This document shows positions 4,480 through 29,873 of a DNA stretch of 64,000 nt, piece after piece. The notes under the pieces were generated by a model that saw only the letters and a list, made by a program, of their open reading frames with translations, was not told the origin of the DNA and did not search any database. The position numbers were made by a program, and so were the translations under genes. Each line of letters starts with the position of its first letter. Within the stretch, counting starts at the first letter, position 1. The stretch is taken from contig CABYHW010000001.1 in assembly GCA_902518705.1 (NCBI GenBank), positions 114,270-178,269 of the forward strand. Direction: 5' to 3'. This DNA is from an uncultured Alphaproteobacteria bacterium. GTDB taxonomy: Bacteria > Pseudomonadota > Alphaproteobacteria > HIMB59 > GCA-002718135.

Positions 4480-4508
4480 TTAAAAATGTTGGGGCCACTT
4501 TGGGCCCC
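4480..4508 (-). terminator. Putative intrinsic terminator of ibpA
   Basis: On the minus strand, GGGGCC-CAAAGT-GGCCCC (4491..4508) sits 9 nt after the ibpA stop. It is followed by AACAUUUUUAAC, so the U-tract is imperfect. Confidence 0.5.
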
Positions 4509-4517
4509 TATCCTAAA

Positions 4518-4955
4518 CTACTTTATTGAAATTAGTCTAGCTTTTTTTTCTTCTGGAATAATTCTCTCCAAATCAATCGCTAAAAGTCCATTCTTCAATT
4601 CAGCATCTTTAACTTTGATGTCTTCTGAAATTGTGAACGATCTTTCAAACTGTCTTGTTGAGATTCCTTTATGGATTACACCATTACCATTTTCATTAAC
4701 CACTTTTTCTTTAGGTTTATTTCTAACAGTTAGGTTGTTTTCTTTTAATTCAATCTCAATATCTTCTTTACTATATCCAGCGAGAGCAACTTCAATTTTA
4801 TAGTTATGCTCATCAACTCTATGAATATTGTAAGGTGGATAATTTGTATTGTATCTTTCCGTAGACTCCAACATTCTATCAAATTCATCAAAAATTGAGT
4901 CAAATCCAACAGAGAATGGTCTAAGAGAATTCCAAACGGATAGGTTTCTAGTCAT
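4518..4955 (-). CDS. ibpA: Small heat-shock protein, Hsp20/alpha-crystallin family
   Basis: MTRNLSVWNSLRPFSVGFDSIFDEFDRM...YPPYNI...YKIEVALAGYSKEDIEIE... is a classic IbpA-like sequence. I use the ATG at 4955, preceded by AAAGGAG, rather than the upstream ORF start at 4997. Confidence 0.9.
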   Translation of the reverse strand: MTRNLSVWNSLRPFSVGFDSIFDEFDRMLESTERYNTNYPPYNIHRVDEHNYKIEVALAGYSKEDIEIELKENNLTVRNKPKEKVVNENGNGVIHKGISTRQFERSFTISEDIKVKDAELKNGLLAIDLERIIPEEKKARLISIK

Positions 4956-4958
4956 AAT

Positions 4959-4979
4959 AACTCCTTTATTAAGCAAGTT
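4959..4979 (-). promoter_or_regulatory. ROSE-like RNA thermometer hairpin occluding the ibpA Shine-Dalgarno
   Basis: The mRNA reads AACUUGCUU-AAUA-AAGGAGUU. UUGCU pairs with AGGAG leaving a single bulged G, the hallmark U(U/C)GCU/SD arrangement of ROSE elements. The AUG lies 4 nt downstream. Confidence 0.55.
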
Positions 4980-5018
4980 TATTTTGTCCGCACCCACAAT
5001 GGCATACAGACAACTGTT

Positions 5019-5046
5019 ATGTGGGGATGATTGTGTTTAATTCAAG
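5019..5046 (-). promoter_or_regulatory. Sigma-32 (RpoH)-type heat-shock promoter of ibpA
   Basis: The minus strand reads CTTGAA-N14-CCCCACAT. The E. coli-type consensus is CTTGAAA-N13-15-CCCCATNT. Confidence 0.6.
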
Positions 5047-5052
5047 TCTTTG

Positions 5053-5709
5053 TTATTTTTTTCTTATAAATGATAATCCATCAGATAATGGCAGAAGAGA
5101 GAATTCCACCCTTGTGTCATTTTGTATTTTTAAATTTAAATCACGGATAGTTTTTGTTTGAGAGTCTTGTTTAGTTTCATCAGCCACATCGCCGTGCCAA
5201 AGCATATTATCAATAATTATTATTCCATTAGAAACTAATAGGTTCAGCGAAAGTTCATAATAATTTGGATAATTATTTTTATCAGCATCTATAAAAATTA
5301 AATCATAACTCTGTTGACGGTCTATCATGCTTTGCATTACCTCAACACCATCTCCAATAATCGATTCAATTTTTGAGCTCATATTATCTAATTCCCAATA
5401 TTTTTTTGCTAAGGATAAAAATTCATCTGAATTATCAACAGTTACGATTTTTCCTGTTTCAGGTAGACCTCTAGCCAAAAACAAAGTGCTCATCCCTGTA
5501 AACCTTCCAATTTCTAAACAGTTTTTAGCATTGGAAATTTTAGTTATCATTTTTAAAAACTGACCTTGTTCTTTTGCAATCTGCATTTGAGAAACACTAC
5601 CAAGTTTTAAAGTTTCATTTTCTAGCTCAGTAATTATTTTATCTTCTCGGTAACCTACGCTTTGTAAGTATTGCACAAGTACTTCATTAATTTCAGTTTG
5701 AGTGCTCAT
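5053..5709 (-). CDS. SAM-dependent O-methyltransferase, family 3 (caffeoyl-CoA OMT-like)
   Basis: LEIGRFTGMSTLFLARGLPETGKIVTVD ... DLIFIDADKNNYPNYYE is the characteristic class I MTase / OMT family 3 pattern. Confidence 0.8.
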   Translation of the reverse strand: MSTQTEINEVLVQYLQSVGYREDKIITELENETLKLGSVSQMQIAKEQGQFLKMITKISNAKNCLEIGRFTGMSTLFLARGLPETGKIVTVDNSDEFLSLAKKYWELDNMSSKIESIIGDGVEVMQSMIDRQQSYDLIFIDADKNNYPNYYELSLNLLVSNGIIIIDNMLWHGDVADETKQDSQTKTIRDLNLKIQNDTRVEFSLLPLSDGLSFIRKK

Positions 5710-7019
5710 TAATTTATAGTTTCAAATATTTCAGATAGTTTTTGAGTTTTTTTATCTGAAATAATGAAACAGCCTTTTATTTTATTTATTAAATTATCAT
5801 CTATATTTTTACTTGAGTATAAACTTAACAGAGGAGTTGAGGAATTCACTTCATCACCAATATTGAGAACATTGTCATATCCAACTCCATAATTTATTTT
5901 ATCGGTAACCTGTTGTCTTCCACCTCCAAGTTCAATAAGTATCAGGCCTAATTCTCTGGTATGAATATTTTCTATCCATCCACCTTCAATAGAAAATATG
6001 TCTTTTTGAATAGATGTATTAGTTAGATCTTTTTCATAAGATGTTAAAATATTTTTTGGCCCACCCAAGGCTGCAACCATCATTTCGAATTTTTCTGCAG
6101 CTAGTCCATTATTAATAACCGTATTAATTTTATTATAAGCCTCTTCTTTTGAAATTTTATAAATGTTTACTAATAGCGAAGATATTAATTCATTAGTGAT
6201 CTTCTCTAATCGATGATCTTTAAAATCATTTTTAATATATTTTATGCATTCTAATATCTCAAGTGTGTGACCAGCACTTTTACCTAAGACCTGATTCATA
6301 TCTGTTAATATAGCTTCACAATGTAATCCTGCTCCTTTAGCGACTCTTACTAAGGAGTTAGATAAATCTCTTGCTATATCAATAGTGCTATTAAAAGATC
6401 CATTACCAACTTTTACATCAAGGACTAACGATGAAAGACCGCTTGCAATTTTTTTTGAAAGAATAGATGATGTTATTAAAGGTAAAGATTCTACTGTACC
6501 TACAATATCCCTTATAGAATATAATTTTTTATCAGCTGGTGCTAAGTTTGAAGTTTGACCAATAATTGCACAACCAACGTCTTTTACTACTTTTTTAAAA
6601 GTTTCTAAATCAGGCTTTGTATTGTACCCGGGTATTGAATCAAATTTATCTAGAGTACCACCGGTATGACCCAAACCTCTGCCTGAAATCATAGGTACAT
6701 ACAGTCCACAAGCTGCAAGTATTGGTGCTAATATAACGCTCGTCTTGTCTCCAACACCGCCAGTTGAGTGCTTATCACAAACTAGCTCAGAATCTACAAT
6801 GTCAGACCAATTCAGTGTATCGCCTGAGTTCGTCATCGCTTCAGTTAAACAAACAGTTTCTTCAGGCGTCATTCCATTTGAAAATATTGCCATGCTCATT
6901 GCTGCAATTTGTGCATCTGAAAAAGATCCATTTGTTAAACCGTCAACAAAAAAGTTGATATCTTCTTTTGATAGATCTTTGTTGTCTCTTTTTTTTCTAA
7001 TTATCTCTTGAGGTATCAT
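5709..7019 (-). CDS. deoA: Thymidine (pyrimidine-nucleoside) phosphorylase
   Basis: MIPQEIIRKKRDNKDLSKEDINFFVDG..., DKHSTGGVGDKTS, SGRGLGHTGGTLDK; 436 aa. Confidence 0.9.
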   Translation of the reverse strand: MIPQEIIRKKRDNKDLSKEDINFFVDGLTNGSFSDAQIAAMSMAIFSNGMTPEETVCLTEAMTNSGDTLNWSDIVDSELVCDKHSTGGVGDKTSVILAPILAACGLYVPMISGRGLGHTGGTLDKFDSIPGYNTKPDLETFKKVVKDVGCAIIGQTSNLAPADKKLYSIRDIVGTVESLPLITSSILSKKIASGLSSLVLDVKVGNGSFNSTIDIARDLSNSLVRVAKGAGLHCEAILTDMNQVLGKSAGHTLEILECIKYIKNDFKDHRLEKITNELISSLLVNIYKISKEEAYNKINTVINNGLAAEKFEMMVAALGGPKNILTSYEKDLTNTSIQKDIFSIEGGWIENIHTRELGLILIELGGGRQQVTDKINYGVGYDNVLNIGDEVNSSTPLLSLYSSKNIDDNLINKIKGCFIISDKKTQKLSEIFETIN

Positions 7020-7827
7020 CGAATTGAACTTCTTGTATAAATTGTTTAATTAAATTTAAAACATTGTTCTCTGCTAAACTTGCATTCTCTAAAGTTTCCT
7101 GATGACTTAATTTCGTTTTATTCATACCAGCAGCTAAGTTGGTGATTACGCTAATACCAATAACGGGAAGTCCGCAATGATTAGCAACTAATACTTCTGG
7201 TACTGTAGACATTCCAACTGCATTTCCACCTATTACTTTTAAGGCATTGATTTCAGCAGGGGTTTCAAAATTTGGTCCTGAGTACATACAATAGATACCT
7301 TCACAAATTTTTTGATCTATTTTTTTAGCGACTTGTATTAACTGATCTCTATAAAACTTGTGATACCCATCACTCATATCATGAAAGCGAGGGCCATACT
7401 CTTCAGCATTGGGTCCAATAAGTGGATTGAAACCACTCCAGTTAATATGATCTTTAATTGCCATTAGACTGCCAGCCGGCATAGCTTCATTTAAACTACC
7501 TGCTGCATTTGTAACAACTAATAACTTGCACCCAATGTCCTTTAATACTCTTATGGGTAAAGCTAAACTTTGAGGATTATGCCCCTCATAAATATGTGAT
7601 CTTCCATACATACAAACAACATTTAAAGTGTTTATTTTTCCTAAAACTAATTTACCTGCGTGACCTTTGACAGTTGGCTGTGGAAAATCAGATAATTGTT
7701 CATATGAAATTGATTCTTGAATATCTTTTTCTTCAAAAAAATTAGTTAGACCACTTCCTAAAATTACAGCAATGTCTGGTGAAGTATTATTTGTTATTTC
7801 TAGAAATTTTTTGGCCGAAGGTAGCAT
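6997..7827 (-). CDS. Purine nucleoside phosphorylase (trimeric PNP/MTAP family)
   Basis: ILGSGL..., HAGKLVLG..., GRSHIYEG..., NAAGSLN, MSTVPEV motifs. Overlaps deoA by 23 nt. Confidence 0.85.
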   Translation of the reverse strand: MLPSAKKFLEITNNTSPDIAVILGSGLTNFFEEKDIQESISYEQLSDFPQPTVKGHAGKLVLGKINTLNVVCMYGRSHIYEGHNPQSLALPIRVLKDIGCKLLVVTNAAGSLNEAMPAGSLMAIKDHINWSGFNPLIGPNAEEYGPRFHDMSDGYHKFYRDQLIQVAKKIDQKICEGIYCMYSGPNFETPAEINALKVIGGNAVGMSTVPEVLVANHCGLPVIGISVITNLAAGMNKTKLSHQETLENASLAENNVLNLIKQFIQEVQFDDTSRDN

Positions 7828-8243
7828 TAAAGATTCTCTGGGCCAAAAGAATCTGGGAGTAATTCTTCTAGCGTAGATGTTTTCATATGACCATTTTCGT
7901 TACACATATGAATCTTAGTATCTAAAGTAGCAAATTCTCTTAACCTCTGTCTACAACCACCACAAGGTGAGCATAATAATTCACCTGAACCTATAACCAC
8001 AACTTCTAAAATTTTTTTGTTTCCATTAGATATCATATTTCCAATTGCTGTTGCTTCGGCACACTGGGATTGAGGATAGGCTGCATTTTCAACATTACAG
8101 CCAGTAATAATTTTACTATCTTCTGTTAGAAAAGCTGCTCCTACTTTAAAATTTGAATATGGCACATGAGCTTGCTCTCTAACTTTTTTTGCAGCCTTAA
8201 ATAAAGTATCAAAATTTTCTGAAACCATATTCTTGTTTAACAT
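7827..8243 (-). CDS. cdd: Cytidine deaminase
   Basis: Zn-binding motifs CAEATAI and CSPCGGCRQ; 138 aa. 1-nt overlap with the PNP gene. Confidence 0.9.
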   Translation of the reverse strand: MLNKNMVSENFDTLFKAAKKVREQAHVPYSNFKVGAAFLTEDSKIITGCNVENAAYPQSQCAEATAIGNMISNGNKKILEVVVIGSGELLCSPCGGCRQRLREFATLDTKIHMCNENGHMKTSTLEELLPDSFGPENL

Positions 8244-8269
8244 GAAATTACTAAAAAAATTATTTATTT

Positions 8270-9421
8270 CTAAATCTTAAACAAATCTTGAGACAAATCA
8301 GGAAGTTCATCTCCCCAAAAAACTTCTTTACGTAAAAATTCTGGATCTTGGTTAAAACAAACAGACATTGCAGAATTATAAACAGCCCTTGAGTCAATAG
8401 TCGAATTTAGATCTCTTCCCTCAAATAATTCTTTCTTTTTTAGTCCAGGCCAATCTGTATAAACTTGAGATTTATTTAGCAAGCCTCCAGCCATTAGTAT
8501 TGCACTTCCATATCCATGCTCAGTTCCATAGCCTCCATTTTGTTTTATAGTTCGGCCAAATTCAGTTAGAGTAAGAATAAGAGTATTATCAAACGCTTGG
8601 CCAAGATTTTCATGTAAAATAGTAACAATTTTATTTACTTCTTCTAGTTCATCAGCATGCGCTCCATCAACACCTCCTTGAGCAGCATGGGTATCAAAAC
8701 CATCTAAATCAAATACAGCAACTCGAGGACCACTTTGATCTTTTAATTGTTTAGCAGCTTCAAGAGCAAGTTTTTTTCTATCATCAGAGTCAGTAGCTAT
8801 TTGCATAGACAATGGTCTTTGTCTAATTGTATCAAGTGTAGATTTAATTAGCTCATTATGCTCACCCTTAAATTCATTATAAATTTGATCTATTAACTTT
8901 GTTTCAACAAAATCTGGTGATGGGAAGAAGTTATTATTCTGTGGCACACCTCTTAATAAAAGTGGCATTGGTAAAGATATTGCCAAACCTTTTCCTATAA
9001 TATTTGAAGCTAGTAACCCCCTACCAAGCCATCCTGTTTTTTCTTTGTATGGAATGTGTGCTCCAGTTTCCATTAAATTTTGTCCATCAAAATGTGATCT
9101 GCCTGTGTAAGGAATATTTGTTGCATGAACAAATGCCGCTTGATTTTTTTGCCAGAGTTTATGAAAAATTTCTAATTTAGGATGAAGGCCGAAGTCGCTG
9201 TTCAAATTAAGAACGTCTTCCAAAATGAGTTTTTTTCTTAATTTTTTGAGACGTTTATCTCCAATAACAGGAACAGCTGTTAAACCATCCATTCCTCCAC
9301 GAAGTGATATAATAATTAGATTTTTTTTCTGCATTGAAGCGAAACTTATTTTAGGAAAATATCCAGAAAGAAATAATGTTGTTGATCCTCCAATTAAAAA
9401 ATTTCTTCTTGTGCAGTTCAT
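8270..9421 (-). CDS. DUF1501-family protein (sulfatase/alkaline-phosphatase-like fold), Tat-exported
   Basis: Twin-arginine signal MNCTRRNFLIGGSTTLF. The conserved C-terminal TEFGRT...GT(E/D)HG pattern (TLTEFGRTIKQNGGYGTEHGYGS) is typical of DUF1501. Confidence 0.75.
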   Translation of the reverse strand: MNCTRRNFLIGGSTTLFLSGYFPKISFASMQKKNLIIISLRGGMDGLTAVPVIGDKRLKKLRKKLILEDVLNLNSDFGLHPKLEIFHKLWQKNQAAFVHATNIPYTGRSHFDGQNLMETGAHIPYKEKTGWLGRGLLASNIIGKGLAISLPMPLLLRGVPQNNNFFPSPDFVETKLIDQIYNEFKGEHNELIKSTLDTIRQRPLSMQIATDSDDRKKLALEAAKQLKDQSGPRVAVFDLDGFDTHAAQGGVDGAHADELEEVNKIVTILHENLGQAFDNTLILTLTEFGRTIKQNGGYGTEHGYGSAILMAGGLLNKSQVYTDWPGLKKKELFEGRDLNSTIDSRAVYNSAMSVCFNQDPEFLRKEVFWGDELPDLSQDLFKI

Positions 9422-10854
9422 ATTTTTAATACTCCTGGCAAATTACAAATGACTCCATACTTTTGACCTAAATCATAATCTGATGTGCCAAATCTAAAAT
9501 TATCAATAAGAGACGCCATATTTTTATGATCTTCAAAATTATTTTTAAGACAAGATAAAATAAAACCATGGGATCTGTTTCCAGATTTAACAAGCATTGG
9601 AAGTTCAACTGAAGCAAACCAAAGGCGGCGTAATAATAATTCTGGTGATACCCAATCTACCTCCAAATCACTCCAACCATTAGGTTGTTTGGCACGATAA
9701 GGTGAATGGCCTATTTCTCTAAGTATCCATGATAATTGTCTTTGTCTGTTATTTGGCTTTGACTTGAAAGTATAATTCATTTTTTCAAAAGAAAGCGGAA
9801 TATTTAAATCAAACATTCTAGATAATTGCATTAACCATATTTCAGGTGGATGAAATTTATGTGTAATCTCATTATACTTATAAGCTTGCGTTATAACTGC
9901 TTTGTGAATTTCAATTAAGCTTCCATTGGATTTGTTCCATGCTTCTATTACTGGATCTATCATTTCTTCTGTTGGTTCATCTGTAATAAAATGCCTGCAT
10001 AATTTTGTTGAAACAAATTTGATACAGATTGGATGTGTTGCCAAATCATGAATTACTTTTGCAAGTTCTCTTTTTGCATCATTTTTATATTTAACTCCTA
10101 AAACTATTTTATCTCCTTTTTGATGCATTTCTTGATCAAACCATATATCTCCTGTCTCTAAATTTTTTCTATCCCATTTGTGTGCCCAACCTGTCATAAT
10201 ATAGGCTAACTGAATAACATCATCCTGAGTGTATCCAGCATTTGGTGAAACAGTATGTAATTCTAGTAGTTCTCTTGCATGATTTTCATTTATAGTTTCT
10301 CGCCACTCCATTCCCTTTTTAGAATTGGGACCAAAAGATTCTGAGTTATCAAGATGGTGAATCATACACCATGAAGTAGTAACTGACTGAACCATCTCTT
10401 CAAAAGTTTTAACCATATTAGGTCTTATAATCTCACGTTGATAAGGCCCAGTGCTAAACTCTGCTAAAAAATCTTTTTCACTTATTGCAAAATGATTTCC
10501 CCAAAAAAGCCAAAAACGCTCAAAAACAGGCTGTTTGGAATACTTAGTTTGATAATGACGAATAGCATGTTCGTTTAATTCAAAATACCTTTCACCAGTT
10601 TTTATTCTTAATTCATCTTTTGCTTTTTTATAGGCATGTTTGTCATTTTTAAATGTTTTTCTTAAAACTTCTCTATCTCCGTATACCCACTCTCCATATT
10701 TTTTTCTTAATTCTTTTTCTGTTGGAATTATTCCAGACCATAAGAGATTGGGTATAGTATCTAGTTGATTTAGTGCCCAATTAAGAGGATCTTTATCTGG
10801 TTTATCATTTGGTGATAAACCAAACGCTACTCGTCTATAAAATTTTAATGACAT
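9418..10854 (-). CDS. DUF1800-family protein (usual partner of DUF1501)
   Basis: 478 aa. The N-terminal RRVAFGLSP and central FWGNHFA / ELHTVS motifs resemble DUF1800. 4-nt overlap with the downstream DUF1501 gene. Confidence 0.7.
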   Translation of the reverse strand: MSLKFYRRVAFGLSPNDKPDKDPLNWALNQLDTIPNLLWSGIIPTEKELRKKYGEWVYGDREVLRKTFKNDKHAYKKAKDELRIKTGERYFELNEHAIRHYQTKYSKQPVFERFWLFWGNHFAISEKDFLAEFSTGPYQREIIRPNMVKTFEEMVQSVTTSWCMIHHLDNSESFGPNSKKGMEWRETINENHARELLELHTVSPNAGYTQDDVIQLAYIMTGWAHKWDRKNLETGDIWFDQEMHQKGDKIVLGVKYKNDAKRELAKVIHDLATHPICIKFVSTKLCRHFITDEPTEEMIDPVIEAWNKSNGSLIEIHKAVITQAYKYNEITHKFHPPEIWLMQLSRMFDLNIPLSFEKMNYTFKSKPNNRQRQLSWILREIGHSPYRAKQPNGWSDLEVDWVSPELLLRRLWFASVELPMLVKSGNRSHGFILSCLKNNFEDHKNMASLIDNFRFGTSDYDLGQKYGVICNLPGVLKI

Positions 10855-10906
10855 ATTTAAAAAAAAATAGTTTACATATATTTATAATATTTAAAAATAA
10901 AATTTA

Positions 10907-11557
10907 ATGAAAAAAATACCCTTAAAAATTTGTGGCATAACAAATGTAAAATCAGTTGAAGTTGCACATAAAAATAAAATAAAATCATTAGGTTTTGCGA
11001 GTAAAAGTTTAAATGGACCAAACACAGCTAGTGATAAAAAAATTCAATCATTAATTAAAGAGTGTAAAAATTATAAAATAGAATCAGTTCTTTTGACTCG
11101 GTATGTATCATTAGATAAAATAATTGAACAAATAGATTTCACAAAACCAAAGACAATTTCATGTTCGTATCATTTTTCCAAAAAAGACTTATTAAAAATA
11201 AAAAATATATTTAAAAGATTAAAAATTGGGATTGCTATTAATCCTGAAAATTTTAATAAAAATTATATTGAGTCAATTAAAAAAATTGTTGATGTAGTTT
11301 ATTTTGATATGAATGTTTATAGAAAAAAAAGCATTAAAAAATACTCATTGAAAAAAAGTATTAAACAAATAGAATTTATTAAAAATAAAAATATTCCTAT
11401 TTATATTGGTGGTGGTATAGATAAGAAAAATGTTTCGAATATTCTGAAACAAACTTCACCTTTTGGTTTGGATATTTCAAGAGGTTTAAAAAATAACCGT
11501 AATTTAATATCTCAAGAAAAGCTTAAAGATTTGTTAAATCAAATTTCTATAGGATAA
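10907..11557 (+). CDS. Phosphoribosylanthranilate isomerase-like protein (divergent TrpF family)
   Basis: N-terminal KICGIT...LGF, a central ...VYFDMN..., and C-terminal IYIGGGI..NV......PFGLDISRGL follow the TrpF TIM-barrel layout, but the sequence is very Lys/Asn/Ile-rich and divergent. Confidence 0.5.
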   Translation: MKKIPLKICGITNVKSVEVAHKNKIKSLGFASKSLNGPNTASDKKIQSLIKECKNYKIESVLLTRYVSLDKIIEQIDFTKPKTISCSYHFSKKDLLKIKNIFKRLKIGIAINPENFNKNYIESIKKIVDVVYFDMNVYRKKSIKKYSLKKSIKQIEFIKNKNIPIYIGGGIDKKNVSNILKQTSPFGLDISRGLKNNRNLISQEKLKDLLNQISIG

Positions 11558-12034
11558 TTTTTTAATAATATATTTATTGGTTAATTCTTTAGATAATTGA
11601 TTAATAGATTTTTTTTCAACCGGATGGAGAAGAAAGGGTTTAATATCTAATATAGGATGTAAAACAAAATCTCTTTCTTTGGCTCTTGGATGCGGAATGA
11701 TTAGATTGTTGTAATGATACTTACTAATTCCAAAAAAAATTATATCAATATCGATACTTCTTGGTCCGTTAACTATTCTTTTATTTTTTTTTAATTTTGT
11801 TTCAATTTTTTGAATAGAATTGATTAATTGTAGAGGCTGTTGATTTGTTTTTAAGATAATTGCACTATTGTAAAAGTTTGACTGATATTTATATCCATAT
11901 GGCGCAGATATATAAATATTGGCAAACTTACTTATGTGACCAATTTTATTTAACTCTTTTACTGCACTACGTAAATTAAGTATTGAATTACCTACATTTG
12001 ACCCAAGGGCTATGATAGTTTCAGTTTGAAACAC
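11534..12034 (-). CDS. folK: 2-amino-4-hydroxy-6-hydroxymethyldihydropterin pyrophosphokinase (HPPK)
   Basis: IALGSNVGN..., YISAPYGY..Q..FYNSAI..., GPRSIDIDIIFF, LIIPHPRAKERDFVL. Confidence 0.85.
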   Translation of the reverse strand: MFQTETIIALGSNVGNSILNLRSAVKELNKIGHISKFANIYISAPYGYKYQSNFYNSAIILKTNQQPLQLINSIQKIETKLKKNKRIVNGPRSIDIDIIFFGISKYHYNNLIIPHPRAKERDFVLHPILDIKPFLLHPVEKKSINQLSKELTNKYIIKKLSYRNLI

Positions 12035-19416: not shown

Positions 19417-20418
19417 ATGAGTAACATGCAAGGCAAGTTTCCAAGTACAAGACTTAGACGTAATAGAATGAAAGAATTTTCTCGTCGTTTAGTTGCTGAA
19501 AATACACTTAGTGTTAATGATTTAATCTTGCCTCTATTTGTATGCGAGGGAAACAAGGTTGATGATCCTATTAATTCGATGCCTGGTATAAGCAGATACT
19601 CTATTGATAAACTTTTAAGTGAAGTAGAAAAAGCTGTTAATTTTAATATTCCTGCTATTGCAATTTTTCCGCAAATTGAAAGTGGCCTTAAAAATTCTGA
19701 GGGAAGTTTAGCTGTAGATGAAAACAATTTGGTGTGCAGATCAATTAAAAGTATCAAAAAAGATTTTCCAAATATTGGTATTGTATGTGATGTTGCGTTA
19801 GATCCTTTTACGGACCATGGGCATGATGGTTTGGTTATAAATGATAAAATAGATAATGATAAAACTTTGGAGGTTCTGGAACAACAAGCCCTAATCCAAG
19901 CTAATGCTGGTTGTGATGTAATCGCCCCATCAGATATGATGGATGGAAGAGTGGGAAGAATAAGAACTGCATTAGATTCAAACAATTTAGCAGATACCCT
20001 TATTCTCTCTTATGCTGCAAAATATGCTTCAGGTTTTTATGGACCTTTTAGAGATGCTATAGGTTCTGGTTCTAATTTGGGTAAAGATGGTAAATTAACA
20101 TATCAAATGGATCCATCAAATAGTGATGAAGCTATTAGAGAAGTTGGATTAGATATAAGTGAAGGCGCAGATATGGTAATGGTTAAACCTGGTATGCCTT
20201 ATCTTGATATTATTTCTAGAATTAAATCAGAATTTAAAGTTCCAACTTTTGCCTACCAAGTATCTGGTGAATATTCGATGATAAAAGAGTCAATTAATAA
20301 AGGTTGGCTTAATGAAAAAGTTGTAATGGAATCTCTTTTATCTTTTAAAAGAGCTGGGGCAAATGGTATACTGACTTACTTTGCACTAGAAGCTGCTGAA
20401 AAATTAAAAAATGAATAA
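19417..20418 (+). CDS. hemB: Porphobilinogen synthase (ALA dehydratase)
   Basis: RLRRNR..., [23 protein letters not shown] motifs. Confidence 0.95.
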
Positions 20419-20884
20419 CATTCAATTTGAAAAAAGAAAATCTATAGAACAAGTTGAAGAGTCAAATGAGCTTGCTCCGAAATTTGATTCAAATGGTCTA
20501 ATACCCGTTGTAACAACAGATTTTTCATCTGGTGAACTACTTATGCAAGGTTATATGAATGAAGAAGCTTTTAAACAAACTATAAGTTTGGGTGAAGCTG
20601 TTTATTTTTCTAGAAGTAGAAATACCCTTTGGCACAAAGGTAAAACGAGTGGATTAACGCAGAAGATAAAAGAAATAAGAATTGATGATGATCAAGATTG
20701 TGTTTGGTTAAGGGTTGATGTTAAAGGTGGTGCTAGCTGTCATGTGGGATATAGATCATGTTTTTATAGAAGTATACCTTTGGATAATTCTAGCTCTAAA
20801 GTTGTTCTTAAATTTGAAGAGAAAGAAAAAGTTTTTGATCCTGAGGAGGTATACAAAGGTGCTCCAAACCCTACTAAATTATAA
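20411..20884 (+). CDS. hisI: Phosphoribosyl-AMP cyclohydrolase (monofunctional)
   Basis: LIPVVTTD..., [29 protein letters not shown]...[13 protein letters not shown]. Confidence 0.9.
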
Positions 20885-21474
20885 TGTCAGACAAATTAAA
20901 GTTTATTGAAACTAGTAAGCTTCCAACAGATATTGGTGAGTTCACTGTACATGCCTTTACAGATGAAAATGAATCAAAAGATCATTTAGCAATATGTATG
21001 GGTGACTTGCTTACCGCTGAGCCAGTTTTATCAAGAATTCATTCGCAATGTATTACAGGGGAATCTTTTTTTAGTATGAGATGTGATTGTAGATTCCAAC
21101 TAACTGAATCATTAAAACAAATTGCTAAAAATGGCAGAGGAGTTATTTTTTATCTTCAACAAGAGGGAAGGGGTATCGGCCTTTCAAATAAAATTAAAGC
21201 ATATAATTTACAAGACAAAGGACTAGATACTGTTGAGGCTAATCATCAACTAGGTTTCAAAGATGATGAGAGAACATATGAAAATATTGCTGGAATGGTA
21301 AAATATTTAGCAATCAAAGAATTAGATTTAATGACCAATAATCCAAAAAAAATAAAAGCGCTTGAAGATATGGGTATCAAAGTAAATCAAAGAGTTCCTA
21401 TTACCTCAGACACCAATAAGTATAATGAAAAATATATCTCAACTAAGAAAAGTAAACTTGGTCATTTAATCTAA
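20884..21474 (+). CDS. ribA: GTP cyclohydrolase II
   Basis: RIHSQCITGE...CDCR.QL, YLQQEGRGIGL.NK..AY.LQD.G.DTV.AN. Confidence 0.9.
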   Translation: MSDKLKFIETSKLPTDIGEFTVHAFTDENESKDHLAICMGDLLTAEPVLSRIHSQCITGESFFSMRCDCRFQLTESLKQIAKNGRGVIFYLQQEGRGIGLSNKIKAYNLQDKGLDTVEANHQLGFKDDERTYENIAGMVKYLAIKELDLMTNNPKKIKALEDMGIKVNQRVPITSDTNKYNEKYISTKKSKLGHLI

Positions 21475-24498: not shown

Positions 24499-25470
24499 TT
24501 ATCTTTCTTTAATGTAAGGTTGACCAATAGCATTAGGTGCAATTGCTTTACCTACAAAACCAGCAAGCAATACTACTGTTAGTATATATGGAAGTGCTTG
24601 TATTAATTGAACTGGTATTTCGCCAATTGCAGGTAGTTCAACACCTTGAAGTCTGATTTGAAGAGCGTCTGTGAATCCAAAGAGCAAGCAAGCAATTAAA
24701 GCTGTTTTCGGGTGCCACTTTCCAAAGATCATTGCTGCTAGAGCTAAGTATCCTCTACCAGCTGACATTTCTCTGAAGAAATTTGCATTAACAGCAGTTG
24801 ATAAATGAGCACCAGCAAAAGCAATTAGGACTCCGTTGATTGCTAGCGCTTTATATCTCATAGTAAAGACATTGATTCCAGCAGTGTCAACGGCACTTGG
24901 ATTTTCTCCAACTGCTCTTAAACGCAAACCAAAGCTAGTTTTAAATACTATCCAAAAAACTAGTGGAACAGAGAGATATGCTAAATATACAAAAACATAA
25001 TGACCACTTAATATATCACTATAAAGTGTTCCAATAAACGGAATGTCTCTTAGCGCGTCAGCAAAAGGAAGATGAATTTCTAAAAAACGCTGATCTTCAT
25101 TTAATGTTGGTGTTAGACCTGCTTGCCCAAACCAAGCTGCTGCTAAAGCAGTTGTTAATCCAATAATTAAAATATTTATAGCAACACATGATACTACTTG
25201 ATCGCCTTTATGTGTTACCGAAGCAAATCCATGTAACATTGATAAACATACACATACAATTATAGCTAACAATAAACCTAACCACGGGTTACCTAAATAG
25301 TAAGAACCAACAGCTGCTACAAAGGCAGCCATAAGCATTTTACCTTCTAAGCTAAAATCTATTACGCCAGATCTTTCAGCAAATATACCAGCCATTGCTG
25401 CAAAAACTAAAGGTGTAGATATTCTTAAAGTAGAATTAATTAAAGAAGCAATATCAGATAAAAATTCCAT
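24499..25470 (-). CDS. ABC transporter permease (BMP/nucleoside-type, YufQ/NupQ-like)
   Basis: Polytopic membrane protein in an operon with the BMP-family SBP and a dual ATPase. Typical branched sugar/nucleoside permease sequence. Confidence 0.85.
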   Translation of the reverse strand: MEFLSDIASLINSTLRISTPLVFAAMAGIFAERSGVIDFSLEGKMLMAAFVAAVGSYYLGNPWLGLLLAIIVCVCLSMLHGFASVTHKGDQVVSCVAINILIIGLTTALAAAWFGQAGLTPTLNEDQRFLEIHLPFADALRDIPFIGTLYSDILSGHYVFVYLAYLSVPLVFWIVFKTSFGLRLRAVGENPSAVDTAGINVFTMRYKALAINGVLIAFAGAHLSTAVNANFFREMSAGRGYLALAAMIFGKWHPKTALIACLLFGFTDALQIRLQGVELPAIGEIPVQLIQALPYILTVVLLAGFVGKAIAPNAIGQPYIKER

Positions 25471-26591
25471 TACGCATTTACCTCTCTATTAAGCCTTCTA
25501 ACAAAAAAGCTTTCTATTTGTGGTCTAAAAAGATTTTCTAATGCACCACTAAATAGTATTATTAATCCCTGAACAGCAACAAACATGTATCTAGTTATGT
25601 TTGGCATTTCGAATGTAACTTCTGAGCCTCCTTGGTATAAAATTCCAAATAAAAAAGCTGCTGGTAAAATACCAATCGGATGATTTCTGCCCATTAGTGC
25701 AACTGCAATTCCTGTAAATCCATATCCTGCTGGAAAGCCTGCTTGAATTTTATGGCTTACACCAAGAATTTCATTGACGCCAAGTAGACCTGCTAAACCT
25801 CCAGAAATACACATCGCGATGATAATATTTTTATGTGGTGATATACCTGCATATATTGCTGCTTGAGTATTGTGTCCTACTGCTCGCATTTCATAACCCC
25901 ATTTAGTTTTCCAAACTAAAAACCAAACAAAGAACAATGATGCAATTGCTAATAAAAAAGTCAGGTTAAGAGGTGAATATCTTATTTTTATTCCAAGAAT
26001 TCCGGAGAATGCTTCAAAACTTGGTAACCAGATTTCTTCTGGAAGCTTCACCGTATGTGGTGCCATTTGATTTGTATCTCTAATCACATCTACAAGTAAG
26101 AAAATCATTAAAGATGAAGCGATAAAATTAAACATTATTGTTGTAATAACAACATGACTTCCTCTTTTTGATTGAAGATAAGCAGGTATGTAAGCCCATG
26201 CTGCACCAAATAAAAATGCACCAAAGATTGCTAAAAGCCAAACGATTGGAACAGGGAGAAAACTTAAATTTATTGCTACTAAAAAAACACCTAGGCCGCC
26301 TATGTATGCTTGACCTTCTCCACCAATATTAAATAGTCTACAATGGAAAGCTACAGCAAAAGCTAGTCCAGTAAAAATAAAATTTGTTGTGTAATAAAGT
26401 GTATAAGCAAATCCTTGGATGTAACCAAATGATCCATAAATAATTAACTTAACAGCCTCTATTGGATTTTCACCTGCAATAAAAACAAAAAGTCCTGAAA
26501 CTAATAACGCTAATGTTAAGTTTACTAGTGGAACAATAACATTAGAGACCCACCACGGAACTTTTGATTTATCGACTACAATATTACTCAT
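25470..26591 (-). CDS. ABC transporter permease (BMP/nucleoside-type, YufP/NupP-like)
   Basis: 373 aa polytopic membrane protein. 1-nt overlaps with both neighbours. Confidence 0.85.
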   Translation of the reverse strand: MSNIVVDKSKVPWWVSNVIVPLVNLTLALLVSGLFVFIAGENPIEAVKLIIYGSFGYIQGFAYTLYYTTNFIFTGLAFAVAFHCRLFNIGGEGQAYIGGLGVFLVAINLSFLPVPIVWLLAIFGAFLFGAAWAYIPAYLQSKRGSHVVITTIMFNFIASSLMIFLLVDVIRDTNQMAPHTVKLPEEIWLPSFEAFSGILGIKIRYSPLNLTFLLAIASLFFVWFLVWKTKWGYEMRAVGHNTQAAIYAGISPHKNIIIAMCISGGLAGLLGVNEILGVSHKIQAGFPAGYGFTGIAVALMGRNHPIGILPAAFLFGILYQGGSEVTFEMPNITRYMFVAVQGLIILFSGALENLFRPQIESFFVRRLNREVNA

Positions 26592-28111
26592 TATGCAACA
26601 CCTGCCATTAGCAATCCTAGCTCACGATCAGTGACATTTTTATTTTCCTTTTCTCCAACAATTTTTCCATCAAACATAACAATTATTCTGTCAGATAAGG
26701 ATAAAATTTCATCTAATTCAACTGATGCTAATAATATTGCTGCACCTTTATCTCTCATATCAATAAGACGTTGATGAATAAACTCGATTGCTCCAATATC
26801 TACACCTCTTGTTGGTTGCCCCACTAAAAGAACTTTTGGATTTTCATTAAGCTCTCTACTCAAAATAATTTTTTGTTGATTACCTCCTGAAAAATTAGAT
26901 GTTATTAAGTTTGGAGAATTAGGTCTAACATCATATTCTTGCATAACTTTATTTGAATATTCAGTAATTTCTTTATTGTTCAAAATTGCAGATTTTGAAT
27001 ATGGCTCTTGATCATGATAACCAAAAATTAAATTTTCATGTGCCTTGAAATCACTAATTAAACCCATTCTTTGCCTGTCTTCAGGTACATGTGCTAAACC
27101 TTTTTCTTTAAGCATTCTTGGGTTTAAGAAATTATTCTGATCAGAAATTTTTTCACCAAATAATTCAATACTTCCAGACTCTACTTTTCTAATTCCAGAA
27201 AGTGCTTCTAATAATTCAGTTTGTCCATTACCAGTTACACCAGCAATACCCAGAATTTCTCCTGAACATATTTCTAGGTTTACATCTTTTACACGCGTTA
27301 CATCTAGATCATTTTTAACTGAAAGATTATTAACTTTGAATATGGTCTCCCCTTTTTTTATATCTTTTTTATCAACTCTAAGTAAGACACTTCTTCCTAC
27401 CATCATTTCGGCTAGTTGTTCTTTGCTTGTATCTTCAGTTTTTGTATGCCCAACCATTTCTCCTTGGCGCATCACTGATACTTCGCTTGTTAAATCCATT
27501 ATTTCAATTAATTTATGCGTAATTAAAACTATGGTTTTGCCTTCATCTTTTAATGAACGAAGAATTTTAAATAATTCATCAACTTCTTGAGGTGTAAGAA
27601 CTCCTGTTGGCTCATCAAGAATTAAAATTTCTGCTCCTCTGTATAAGGATTTTAATATTTCCACTCTTTGACGAAAACCTACAGATAAATCTGAAATAGT
27701 AGCATCAAGATCAATATTAAAATTATATGTTTGACATAATTTTTCTAAATCTTCTTTTGCCTTTTGTAATTTTTCTCCAAATACTGTTTCACCTTCAAAA
27801 CCAAGAATTATATTTTCTAGTACAGTAAAATTTTCTACCAACATAAAATGTTGATGAACCATTCCAATGCCGTTTATTATTGAATCTCTTGGTGATCTTA
27901 AATTAATTTCTTTTCCATTAATCTTAATTGAACCTGAATTAGCTTGGTAAAGACCAAAAACTATACTCATCAAAGTAGATTTACCTGCTCCGTTTTCTCC
28001 AATTATGCCGTGAATTGTTCCTTTATTTATTTTGAGATTAATGTTTTTATTGGCATGAACATGACCAAATGATTTATTTATATCAGTTAATTCTAAGATA
28101 GGTGAGACCAT
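26591..28111 (-). CDS. ABC transporter ATP-binding protein with two fused ATPase domains
   Basis: First-domain Walker A GENGAGKST and Walker B ILILDEP. The second domain has GVTGNGQTEL and FSGGNQQK. 506 aa. Confidence 0.9.
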   Translation of the reverse strand: MVSPILELTDINKSFGHVHANKNINLKINKGTIHGIIGENGAGKSTLMSIVFGLYQANSGSIKINGKEINLRSPRDSIINGIGMVHQHFMLVENFTVLENIILGFEGETVFGEKLQKAKEDLEKLCQTYNFNIDLDATISDLSVGFRQRVEILKSLYRGAEILILDEPTGVLTPQEVDELFKILRSLKDEGKTIVLITHKLIEIMDLTSEVSVMRQGEMVGHTKTEDTSKEQLAEMMVGRSVLLRVDKKDIKKGETIFKVNNLSVKNDLDVTRVKDVNLEICSGEILGIAGVTGNGQTELLEALSGIRKVESGSIELFGEKISDQNNFLNPRMLKEKGLAHVPEDRQRMGLISDFKAHENLIFGYHDQEPYSKSAILNNKEITEYSNKVMQEYDVRPNSPNLITSNFSGGNQQKIILSRELNENPKVLLVGQPTRGVDIGAIEFIHQRLIDMRDKGAAILLASVELDEILSLSDRIIVMFDGKIVGEKENKNVTDRELGLLMAGVA

Positions 28112-28139
28112 AAATTATTTATTAATCTTTGGTCTCACC
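28101..28139 (-). promoter_or_regulatory. Intercistronic 10-bp stem-loop that includes the ATPase start codon
   Basis: The mRNA reads GGUGAGACCA-(19 nt AU-rich loop)-UGGUCUCACC. The UG of the AUG (28111..28109) and the next 8 nt form the 3' arm. Confidence 0.55.
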
Positions 28140-28157
28140 AAATATTTATTTTAGTAT

Positions 28158-29135
28158 CTACTCTTGTGACCAGTCAGCAACAACTAGAGCACCACTAGCA
28201 ATGTCTGCAGCAGCAGCATCTGCGGCAGCAGCCATTTCAGATGTTACCATTCCATCTTCAGTTGCATAACCAACCATTCCTTCTGAAAGACCAAGAATGT
28301 TTATGCCAGATTCAAATCTGCCTGACTCAACATTTTTAGCTTGTTCAAAAATTGTTAGATCTAATCTCTTCAACATTGATGTTAACATGTTACCTGGATG
28401 CATCCAGTTTTGATTAGAGTCAACTCCAATACCCATAATGCCTGCATCAGCAGCAGCTTGAAGAACACCAATACCTGTTCCACCAGCAGCTTGGTATACA
28501 ACATCAGCACCGCCATCAATTTGAGCTTTTGTTAATTCTGCACCTTTTGTTGGGTTATTCCATGCCTCATTTGTAGTTCCAGTCATATTAGCTAAAACAG
28601 TTATATCTGGATTTACATATTGTGCACCTTGCTCATAACCACCTTGGAATTTTCTAATCAGAGGAATATCCATTCCACCGACGAAACCTATTGTTCCACT
28701 TTTAGATGCCATAGCAGCCATCATTCCAACTAAGAAAGAACCTTCATGTTCTTTGTAACAAGCTTGATAAATATTATTGTTTGGATCATCTAACCAACAA
28801 ACATCAACTGCAACAAATTTTATATCTGGGTAATCAGCTGAAACTGCTGCAACTGCATCAGCTTGAGCAAATCCCATTCCTACGATCATTGTTGCTCCTC
28901 TATCAGCAATCTTACGCATACCTTGCTCGATCTGATTGTCGTTTGCAGATTCAAACTCAATCATACCCCAGCCAAGTTCATTAACAACTCTCTCAGCTGT
29001 ATTGAACGCTAACTCGTTAAATGATTTGTCAAATTTTCCACCAGAGTCATAAACAACTCCTATTGTGTTTGCGAACGCACTTGAAGAGAAGACAAGAGCG
29101 AAAGAAACTGAAAAAATACTTAAAATTTTCTTCAT
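28158..29135 (-). CDS. BMP-family (Med/PnrA-like) substrate-binding protein, probable nucleoside receptor
   Basis: Signal peptide, then VVYDSGGKFDKSFNE..., GFVGGMDIPLIRKF..G..QGA typical of basic membrane protein family SBPs. Confidence 0.85.
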   Translation of the reverse strand: MKKILSIFSVSFALVFSSSAFANTIGVVYDSGGKFDKSFNELAFNTAERVVNELGWGMIEFESANDNQIEQGMRKIADRGATMIVGMGFAQADAVAAVSADYPDIKFVAVDVCWLDDPNNNIYQACYKEHEGSFLVGMMAAMASKSGTIGFVGGMDIPLIRKFQGGYEQGAQYVNPDITVLANMTGTTNEAWNNPTKGAELTKAQIDGGADVVYQAAGGTGIGVLQAAADAGIMGIGVDSNQNWMHPGNMLTSMLKRLDLTIFEQAKNVESGRFESGINILGLSEGMVGYATEDGMVTSEMAAAADAAAADIASGALVVADWSQE

Positions 29136-29252: not shown

Positions 29253-29873
29253 TCAAGTACCCATATACCTATCGCCTGCGTCACCTAAGCCCGGTACAAT
29301 GAACTTATTTTTATTCAATTTAGCATCAATGTTGCAAGTAAATATATGAATGCCTTTTTGCTTTTTTTGAATTTTTTTAATACCCTCAGGAGCAGCTAGC
29401 AAAGACACCAAAAATATATCTTTAATATTAACGCCTTTGTTTTTTATTAAATTGATTGCAGCAATTGAAGAATTACCTGTGGCCAACATTGGATCTAAAA
29501 TTAACACTTTTTTATTTTTAACTCTTGGAAGTTTAAAGAGGTATTCTACAGGTTCATAAGTTTGTTCGTCTCGGTATAAACCTATGTGACCTTTTTCGGC
29601 TTCGGGTAAAAATTTTGCAAACCCTTCAAGTAATCCTAAACCAGCGCGTAAAATTGGTACCAAAATTATGGGTTGACCCAATGCTGTACCACTCATTTTT
29701 TTTAGAGGTGTTTCAATTGTTTGTTTTTTAAAGGGAACGTATTGAAGAACATCAGAAGCAATGAGGTAGCTTATTTCATTCATAGTTTGTCTAAAAAAAG
29801 TATTTGATGTTTTTTTATTTCGCAAAATTGTTAATTTGTATTGAACGAATGGTGATTTAATTACTGTAATCAT
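29253..29873 (-). CDS. upp: Uracil phosphoribosyltransferase
   Basis: VPILRAGLG..., ILDPMLATGNS, PGLGDAGDR. Confidence 0.95.
   Translation of the reverse strand: MITVIKSPFVQYKLTILRNKKTSNTFFRQTMNEISYLIASDVLQYVPFKKQTIETPLKKMSGTALGQPIILVPILRAGLGLLEGFAKFLPEAEKGHIGLYRDEQTYEPVEYLFKLPRVKNKKVLILDPMLATGNSSIAAINLIKNKGVNIKDIFLVSLLAAPEGIKKIQKKQKGIHIFTCNIDAKLNKNKFIVPGLGDAGDRYMGT

Follow-up and report, generated by a model that had tools for sequence, protein, structure and literature searches.

A DUF1800–DUF1501 gene pair beside a nucleoside-catabolism block in one SAR11 branch is probably an autonomous two-gene unit

The window analysed here is the whole 64,000-nucleotide stretch of contig CABYHW010000001.1 (assembly GCA_902518705.1, positions 114,270 to 178,269) from an uncultured alphaproteobacterium whose genome is of the Pelagibacteraceae (SAR11). 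It carries six consecutive minus-strand genes in which a DUF1800–DUF1501 pair is followed by genes for cytidine deaminase (cdd), purine-nucleoside phosphorylase (PNP), thymidine phosphorylase (deoA) and an O-methyltransferase (OMT). Its G+C content is ~30%, its nearest database proteins are those of Pelagibacteraceae, and the DUF1501 protein of the GORG single-cell genome AG-897-D18 (L012) is 99% identical to its own. An earlier note on this DNA had taken the arrangement as a functional hint and proposed, from context, that the pair could release nucleosides or bases in the periplasm for uptake. We find instead that DUF1800–DUF1501 is an autonomous, translationally coupled two-gene unit across Proteobacteria, and that its position next to the nucleoside block is an ordinary, lineage-specific juxtaposition. 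The arrangement is probably best explained by two independent modules packed side by side in one SAR11 branch.

Recurrence of the linkage was the preset test of the functional proposal. One genome per GTDB species was scanned with a 46-sequence DUF1501 alignment; out of more than 600 pattern matches, the best-scoring 80 were retained, comprising 18 Pelagibacterales-like (SAR11) loci and 62 loci from other Alpha-, Beta- and Gammaproteobacteria; at least 3 kb of downstream sequence was available for 71 of them. Searches with the window proteins (tblastn) placed cdd, PNP, deoA and OMT within 10 kb of the pair in two of the 80 loci only, both from close relatives (L012, 99% identity; L013, 86%). 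None of the other 16 SAR11 species and none of the 62 other Proteobacteria encodes cdd, PNP or deoA within that distance, and relaxing the threshold to E ≤ 1e-2 added no locus. As a recurrent association, the proposed linkage of the pair to nucleoside catabolism therefore fails.

SAR11 homologues of falling identity were also looked up one by one for gene order, using exact-protein look-ups. The six-gene order, followed by a small heat-shock protein gene (HSP20), is present in L001–L004 (DUF1501 86% identical), in the abundant lineage represented by L092 (DUF1800 73% identical to that of the window) and in L007 (62% identity). DUF1501 and cdd are 26 nt apart in the window, the corresponding spacers being of 25 nt (L001), 72 nt (L092) and 209 nt (L007), and OMT accompanies cdd–PNP–deoA throughout this clade (L001, L007, L012, L013 and L092). 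The block is absent from L005/6 (65% identity), where the order is DUF1800–DUF1501–SOUL, from L008/9 (60%), where HSP20 directly follows DUF1501, and from L010/11 (58%), where PEMT, a family 2 glycosyltransferase (GT2) gene, DUF1800 and DUF1501 precede umuC on the opposite strand. In a neighbour-joining tree of concatenated DUF1800 and DUF1501 sequences, the window, L001–L004, L007, L012, L013 and L092 group in a single SAR11 subclade, within which L005, devoid of the block, is also nested. Block-bearing genomes share synteny over 15 kb, running through thrS–cysS, DUF2141, pabB–...–folP–folB–folK, a PRAI-like gene, the pair, the block and HSP20. Because all positives fall in a single subclade whose whole neighbourhood is syntenic, the adjacency represents one inherited gene order and not a repeated association. 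Uniqueness to this genome, which the earlier note had named as a refutation, does not apply, since other contigs bear the block, but the linkage is lineage-specific, not recurrent, and confined to one SAR11 subclade.

Within SAR11, at least 18 species carry the pair, whereas pyrimidine-usage genes, including those for cytidine deaminase and upp, were reported by Braakman et al. in only ~3% of SAR11 genomes, from deep-branching lineages (PMC11698098). A separate clade of 12 loci, the main Pelagibacter clade with the cultured HIMB and nBUS strains, carries a PMT_2 (ArnT-like) gene and a GT2 gene upstream of the pair instead. Across L016–L026 the upstream side is fixed (GST, dksA, PMT_2, GT2) and the genes downstream of DUF1501 (~11150 onward) vary between genomes (umuCD and assorted small open reading frames, ORFs), a pattern like that at the edge of a hypervariable region.

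No recurrent neighbour accompanies the pair outside SAR11. Neighbouring ORFs, called with a GC3 filter, were clustered de novo, ten loci without a called DUF1501 ORF being left out. A Pfam scan of the 139 ORFs flanking the pair in 52 non-SAR11 loci returned 163 families, the highest recurrence being six (aldo-keto reductase, attributable to Bradyrhizobium synteny), and the 25 most recurrent families, those listed for these neighbours, include none linked to nucleosides. In seven loci from Rhizobium, Mesorhizobium and relatives (L041, L046, L060, L065, L072, L077 and L080), a gene for an extracytoplasmic function (ECF) sigma-70 factor lies just upstream of DUF1800 on the same strand (~6800–8400), beside a small ORF of ~150 aa that is possibly an anti-sigma factor. 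With linkage to nucleoside genes limited to one SAR11 branch, the neighbourhood says little about the function of the pair.

The association between the two members of the pair is strict. In all 75 loci with upstream DNA, DUF1501 is immediately preceded by DUF1800 on its own strand, and the usual junction is a 4-nt ATGA overlap of stop and start codons. Both the organisation of the two genes as a predicted operon and the status of DUF1501 as a substrate for twin-arginine translocation (Tat) have been described previously, together with tandem DUF1800–DUF1501 pairs in Agrobacterium vitis (PMC5122149). Two tandem pairs are also present in a SAR11 single-cell genome (L029; 7369–9908 and 10005–12361).

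DUF1501 is a member of a widespread family. The match to PF07394 far exceeds the gathering score of 27 and spans only residues 228–351; the protein as a query shows full-length homology to 7830 representative clusters at E ≤ 0.001, 530 of them at E ≤ 1e-30. The twin-arginine signal recognized in the earlier note is present: the N-terminus holds the Tat motif MNCTRRNFLIGG, in which inspection identifies T4-R5-R6-N-F-L-I, a hydrophobic stretch and S-F-A-S, within a signal covering approximately residues 1–29 (MNCTRRNFLIGGSTTLFLSGYFPKISFAS). The RR pair is invariant among 46 diverse DUF1501 sequences, and the Tat motif is present in 71 of the 75 called DUF1501 ORFs, the remaining four being truncated or miscalled. 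Phosphopentomutase (DeoB) also belongs to the alkaline-phosphatase superfamily, and a role of DUF1501 as a DeoB analogue was considered and rejected on account of the invariant Tat signal.

Structural prediction agrees with the sulfatase/alkaline-phosphatase-like fold that had been suggested for DUF1501. An AlphaFold2 model built from the 46 diverse sequences reached a pLDDT of 89.9 and a pTM of 0.84, and a Foldseek search of the PDB returned 227 matches at E ≤ 0.001; all 50 matches listed are alkaline-phosphatase-superfamily structures, comprising carrageenan and choline sulfatases (best E 7e-8), phosphonate monoester hydrolase (PMH), NPP-type nucleotide phosphodiesterases (E 5e-6 to 2e-5, and so outscored by the sulfatases) and YejM, at a probability of 1.0. 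The relationship is distant, with TM-scores of just 0.41–0.47 and identities of ~9–14%, and a profile search of PDB sequences with the DUF1501 family gave no match at E ≤ 1. Neither Sulfatase (PF00884, E ≤ 1e-3) nor Phosphodiest (PF01663) was matched in Pfam, and no 5'-nucleotidase or other family beyond DUF1501 was found in Pfam or NCBIfam, leaving the likeness to NPP at the level of fold only. The formylglycine motif C/S-x-P-x-R (CxPxR in sulfatases) is absent, and the segment containing the candidate nucleophile reads G-R-S-H-F-D-G-Q. Given the missing sulfatase motif and the lack of Sulfatase and Phosphodiest matches, the predicted structure places DUF1501 as a distant member of the superfamily that is neither a sulfatase nor an NPP.

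Residue conservation is consistent with an enzymatic role. Invariant or near-invariant positions in the alignment are D45, S109, H110, D243, H245, E287, R290, N295, D/E301 (E301 here) and H302. D45 follows strand 1, the segment R108-S109-H110-F111-D112-x-Q114 lies at the N-terminus of helix 109–118, and further conserved motifs comprise D243-x-H245, E287-F-G-R290, N295 and (D/E)301-H302. The alignment and the predicted secondary structure give a conserved serine at a helix N-terminus plus a D/D-x-H/(D/E)-H set of candidate residues: D45, S109, D243/H245 and E301/H302 occupy the secondary-structure positions expected for metal ligands and nucleophile in the alkaline-phosphatase superfamily. This pattern fits a metal site with Ser109 as a candidate nucleophile and makes a phosphoesterase-type active site plausible. 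The candidate residues are the same in the block-bearing clade as in clades without the block.

DUF1800 is predicted to be mostly helical, and its match to PF08811 covers residues 5–415 at ten times the gathering score of 26.1. An alignment of 37 sequences revealed conserved polar motifs, namely W118-x-N-H-F, L168-D, G175-P-x-S, N189-E-N-x-x-R-E-x-x-E-L-H-T, H244 and P391-x-G. No signal peptide was seen by eye in any orthologue inspected, nor an RR pair with a long hydrophobic stretch in any taxon; in SAR11 and other taxa alike, the conserved domain begins within ~5–25 residues of the start, the N-terminus leading straight into its R-x-x-F-G motif. A hydropathy scan did not discriminate between the N-termini of DUF1800 and DUF1501, and the signal-peptide call is by inspection. 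Since only DUF1501 carries the signal, the description of the genes as a Tat-exported pair was overstated. A profile search of PDB sequences with DUF1800 returned nothing significant, a Pfam scan of the 37 sequences at E ≤ 1 found no second family, PSCyt and PSD1 included (none better than E 0.016), and a protein-database profile search with a diverse DUF1800 alignment retrieved almost only one SAR11 population, at 73% identity. Three metagenome assemblies independent of one another (L002, L003 and L004), all from the 86%-identity lineage, have an in-frame TAA (9099–9101) instead of the Gln182 codon (CAA) of DUF1800 just before the invariant NEN-ARE-ELHT motif; their DUF1501 is identical to that of L001 and L013, which are intact. 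This may be a circulating pseudogene allele, in which case the pair would seem dispensable in that population.

Within the window itself, gene order and junctions are exactly as first described (Table 1): in the ORF listing, DUF1800 and DUF1501 overlap by 4 nt, 26 nt separate DUF1501 from cdd, and the three remaining junctions are overlaps of 1, 23 and 1 nt, in that order. Gene identities were equally upheld, both DUF assignments by Pfam and cdd, PNP and deoA by NCBIfam equivalog cut-offs, and upp (29253–29873) and the nucleoside importer, a BMP-type ATP-binding cassette (ABC) transporter (24499–29135), were located at 24.5–29.9 kb, 15–20 kb from the pair as claimed. The absence of a visible terminator also held, since no convincing one was detected within the six-gene run. 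A weak terminator-like site in DUF1501 (8318–8298; three GC pairs, G-T pairs allowed) was dismissed as lying within chance expectation. Sigma-70-like promoter matches numbered 24 against 34.9 in shuffled sequences and, falling below that expectation, are uninformative. Read-through from DUF1501 into cdd is plausible in this genome, to judge from the short spacer.

The same-strand array nevertheless appears to hold more than one regulatory unit, as HSP20 has its own sigma-32-like promoter, a ROSE_3-like untranslated region (UTR) and a terminator. Upstream of HSP20, L001, L007, L008 and L092 all share the promoter-like element CTTGAA...CCCA(C/T)AT, and L001, L007 and L092 also share the UTR element GTATGCCATTGTGGGTGC. 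The predicted fold of the ROSE-like region consists of two hairpins and sequesters the AAAGGAG Shine–Dalgarno sequence. The likely HSP20 start is ATG 4955, and not GTG 4997 (159 aa), because orthologues measure 145 aa and AAAGGAG precedes ATG 4955. SAR11 genomes are characterized by very short intergenic spacers and highly conserved synteny. With HSP20 apparently under separate control, tight same-strand packing in this region is no argument for shared function.

Table 1. Features of the six-gene array and of the adjoining HSP20 unit (window coordinates)
Feature	Position	Strand	Evidence and remarks
Divergent intergenic region between DUF1800 and the PRAI-like gene, 52 nt	10855..10906		Presumed array promoter region; weak promoter-like match at 10913–10884
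DUF1800 protein, 478 aa	9418..10854	minus	PF08811, 261.8 bits
DUF1501 protein, 383 aa	8270..9421	minus	PF07394, 85.5 bits; start overlaps DUF1800 stop by 4 nt (ATGA)
DUF1501–cdd spacer, 26 nt, A+T-rich	8244..8269	minus	No hairpin; too short for a full promoter
Cytidine deaminase (cdd), tetrameric type, 138 aa	7827..8243	minus	TIGR01354, 157 bits (cut-off 113.65); Pfam dCMP_cyt_deam_1
Purine-nucleoside phosphorylase, trimeric PNP/PunA type, 276 aa	6997..7827	minus	NF006054, 342.5 (cut-off 218); TIGR01700, 295.1 (cut-off 293.35); Pfam PNP_UDP_1
Thymidine/pyrimidine-nucleoside phosphorylase (deoA), 436 aa	5709..7019	minus	NF004490, 545.6 bits (cut-off 269); Glycos_transf_3 with N- and C-terminal domains
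Class I SAM-dependent O-methyltransferase (OMT), Methyltransf_3 family, 218 aa	5053..5709	minus	PF01596, 209.8 bits
Sigma-32-type heat-shock promoter-like motif upstream of HSP20	5019..5046	minus	CTTGAA-N14-CCCCACAT, read from sequence
ROSE-like RNA thermometer (putative), HSP20 5' UTR	4950..5011	minus	Rfam ROSE_3 (RF02523) matched over the full model length at 29.9 bits, below the gathering score of 43; E 0.0039
HSP20 small heat-shock protein, 145 aa	4518..4955	minus	PF00011
Intrinsic terminator ending the same-strand array after HSP20	4491..4508	minus	GGGGCC-loop-GGCCCC with T-rich tail; sole strong one

Further genes surround the array. Divergent from DUF1800, a weak PRAI-like ORF (10907–11557, plus strand; PF00697, 29 bits) is kept in block-bearing lineages; its 3' end overlaps that of folK (11534–12034, minus strand) convergently by 24 nt, and a complete pabB–pabA–pabC–folP–folB–folK array comes next. 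In L001, of the 86% lineage, the stretch ~8–10 kb past HSP20 (19671–21152) encodes an adenosine deaminase (PF00962) and a kinase of the PfkB family, adding purine-nucleoside metabolism to the region at a point just beyond the start of the window.

Under the two-module reading, the first module is the pair. DUF1501 would be a Tat-exported, metal-dependent enzyme of the alkaline-phosphatase superfamily, with Ser109 in R-S-H-F-D-x-Q as its likely nucleophile, and would most likely hydrolyse or transfer a phospho- or sulfo-ester group in the periplasm. DUF1800 would be its obligatory helical partner, most likely binding DUF1501 in the cytoplasm and leaving with it by Tat hitch-hiking, or else maturing DUF1501 ahead of export. 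Hitch-hiking gives the best fit because gene order is strict, the reading frames overlap at ATGA, and the Tat signal is invariant on one partner and missing from the other. The second module, cdd–PNP–deoA–OMT, would be a cytoplasmic block for nucleoside catabolism and salvage drawn from the rare pyrimidine-usage set of deep-branching SAR11, and HSP20 a third, separately regulated unit. A single transcript from a promoter upstream of DUF1800 probably covers both modules in this genome; such a transcript would be a product of genome compaction and inherited synteny, and would not be evidence that the pair supplies the pathway with nucleosides.

Alternative readings concern the role of DUF1800 and the substrate of DUF1501. 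Sulfatase-maturing enzymes and the TorD/DmsD/NapD class of chaperones provide precedents for a partner that stays in the cytoplasm, and DUF1800 might, as a maturation enzyme or Tat-proofreading chaperone, modify DUF1501 or load its active site before export. We regard this as a real though rather unlikely alternative. The lack of a signal peptide on DUF1800, the strict order with DUF1800 first and translationally coupled, and the many invariant His, Glu, Asp and Asn residues, which suggest a catalytic or ligand-binding site, would all suit such a role, as would the use of Tat, which implies cytoplasmic folding or cofactor acquisition and has been argued for DUF1501 along these lines (PMC3542564). 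At ~480 aa, however, DUF1800 is far larger than known Tat chaperones, the Pfam scan of 37 members detected no radical-SAM, formylglycine-generating enzyme or other maturase signature, and hitch-hiking accounts for the same facts. A role in the cell envelope or on an exported glycan, in which neighbouring glycosyltransferases make a periplasmic glycan or glycolipid and DUF1501 adds, removes or hydrolyses its phospho- or sulfo-ester substituent, appears unlikely. The alkaline-phosphatase superfamily does include envelope enzymes such as OpgB, BcsG, EptA and LtaS, and several contexts point in this direction: in the 12 main-clade SAR11 loci the PMT_2 (ArnT-like, GT-C) and GT2 genes come immediately before the pair on its own strand, overlapping DUF1800 by 1 nt, L008 has PMT_2–PAP2–PMT_2 nearby, an ECF sigma factor precedes the pair in five to seven Rhizobiales loci, the envelope alkaline-phosphatase-fold protein YejM is among the Foldseek matches, and, in Enterobacterales and Agrobacterium vitis, GT2 chitin-synthase-like genes were transferred together with the pair (PMC5122149). 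Yet no glycosyltransferase family recurs among the 139 non-SAR11 neighbours, and DUF1501 is a soluble Tat substrate whereas the precedents are membrane-anchored. Moreover, the 12 SAR11 loci are monophyletic and therefore count as one event; the hints represent two or three independent events at most and are gone in the wider sample, and the argument is an inference from context of the same kind that failed for the nucleoside proposal.

A nucleoside function restricted to the block-bearing clade would have the pair act as a periplasmic phosphoesterase on nucleotides or nucleic acids, the nucleosides then being imported by the BMP-type ABC transporter and catabolised by cdd–PNP–deoA; we judge this improbable. 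In its more elaborate form, a two-subunit, Tat hitch-hiking phosphoesterase wired into the salvage operon of this subclade and freeing nucleosides from dissolved nucleotides or DNA fragments, it is more improbable still, although, if true, it would give the first functional handle on a DUF pair of thousands of bacteria. Several observations weigh against two independent modules, and most of them speak for this rival. Adjacency has been retained in five lineages, down to a DUF1501 identity of 62%; the 26-nt spacer without terminator makes co-transcription plausible here, and with it some regulatory coupling; and NPP-type nucleotide phosphodiesterases are among the structural neighbours of an alkaline-phosphatase-superfamily fold that carries a Ser-type candidate nucleophile and no sulfatase motif. 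The window also encodes upp and the importer, and in L005 the pair has, ~600 nt upstream and beyond an ORF on the opposite strand, a PF11071 gene (nucleoside 2-deoxyribosyltransferase-like, YtoQ-type; 5517–5966), perhaps by coincidence. On the same side of the balance, the survey covers the 80 best matches and so leaves distant DUF1501 clades, such as those of PVC bacteria, outside it, and the DUF1800 model, from a shallow alignment of 16 sequences, reached a pLDDT of only 42. Against the nucleoside function stand the 78 of 80 loci (16 of 18 SAR11 species and all 62 others) without cdd, PNP or deoA within 10 kb, the single inherited event to which the association reduces, and a spacer that widens to 72 and 209 nt in sister lineages. 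The pair is moreover widespread in SAR11 when pyrimidine-usage genes are reported in only ~3% of genomes (PMC11698098), sulfatases rank above NPP in the fold search, and the active-site residues do not differ from those of clades lacking the block. Two independent modules thus remain the probable explanation.

Comparison with known systems places the pair among familiar relatives. It resembles the proteobacterial DUF1800/DUF1501 pair in both Pfam models, in having DUF1800 first with overlapping stop and start codons, and in the Tat signal on DUF1501, and differs in its flanks only, through the nucleoside block found downstream in one SAR11 subclade. In the PVC superphylum, DUF1501 is paired with PSCyt1/PSCyt2/PSD1 proteins (PMC3542564); there too it carries a Tat or signal peptide and always lies beside a large partner gene, but the partner is a cytochrome-motif PSCyt/PSD1 protein instead of DUF1800, and dozens of paralogues occur per PVC genome as opposed to a single copy per locus here. 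With the alkaline-phosphatase superfamily (S1 sulfatases, PMH, NPP and YejM), DUF1501 shares the predicted core fold and, as candidate features, an Asp that follows strand 1, a putative nucleophile where a helix begins, and D-x-H and (D/E)-H pairs resembling metal ligands, and departs from it in its low TM-scores, the R-S-H-F-D-G-Q motif and Tat export with an obligatory partner. Tat exports folded complexes, and hitch-hiking is established for heterodimers such as HybO–HybC and DmsA–DmsB of E. coli. Like these, the pair, a putative complex, has one partner with a twin-arginine signal and an adjacent, co-translated partner without; unlike them, it lacks redox cofactor motifs and encodes the signal-less partner first. 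The nucleoside block matches deo/cdd operons and the pyrimidine-usage sets of deep-branching SAR11 (PMC11698098) in its tightly overlapping cdd, PNP and deoA, and in the upp gene and BMP-type ABC transporter of the window. Known deo operons contain no DUF1800/DUF1501 pair, which is attached here in one subclade only.

Together, these results place in the window an ordinary member of the pair family next to an ordinary cdd–PNP–deoA block. The nucleoside linkage is best read as an accident of synteny in one lineage and should be kept out of annotation. Three points are modestly new: figures for how autonomous the pair is, a signature of DUF1501 that is Ser-type and non-sulfatase, and the finding that DUF1800 consistently lacks a signal peptide, which opens Tat hitch-hiking, or maturation in the cytoplasm, to testing. 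Among uncharacterised gene pairs DUF1800/DUF1501 is one of the more widespread, and even streamlined SAR11 genomes keep it, so that a real clue to its function would be valuable.

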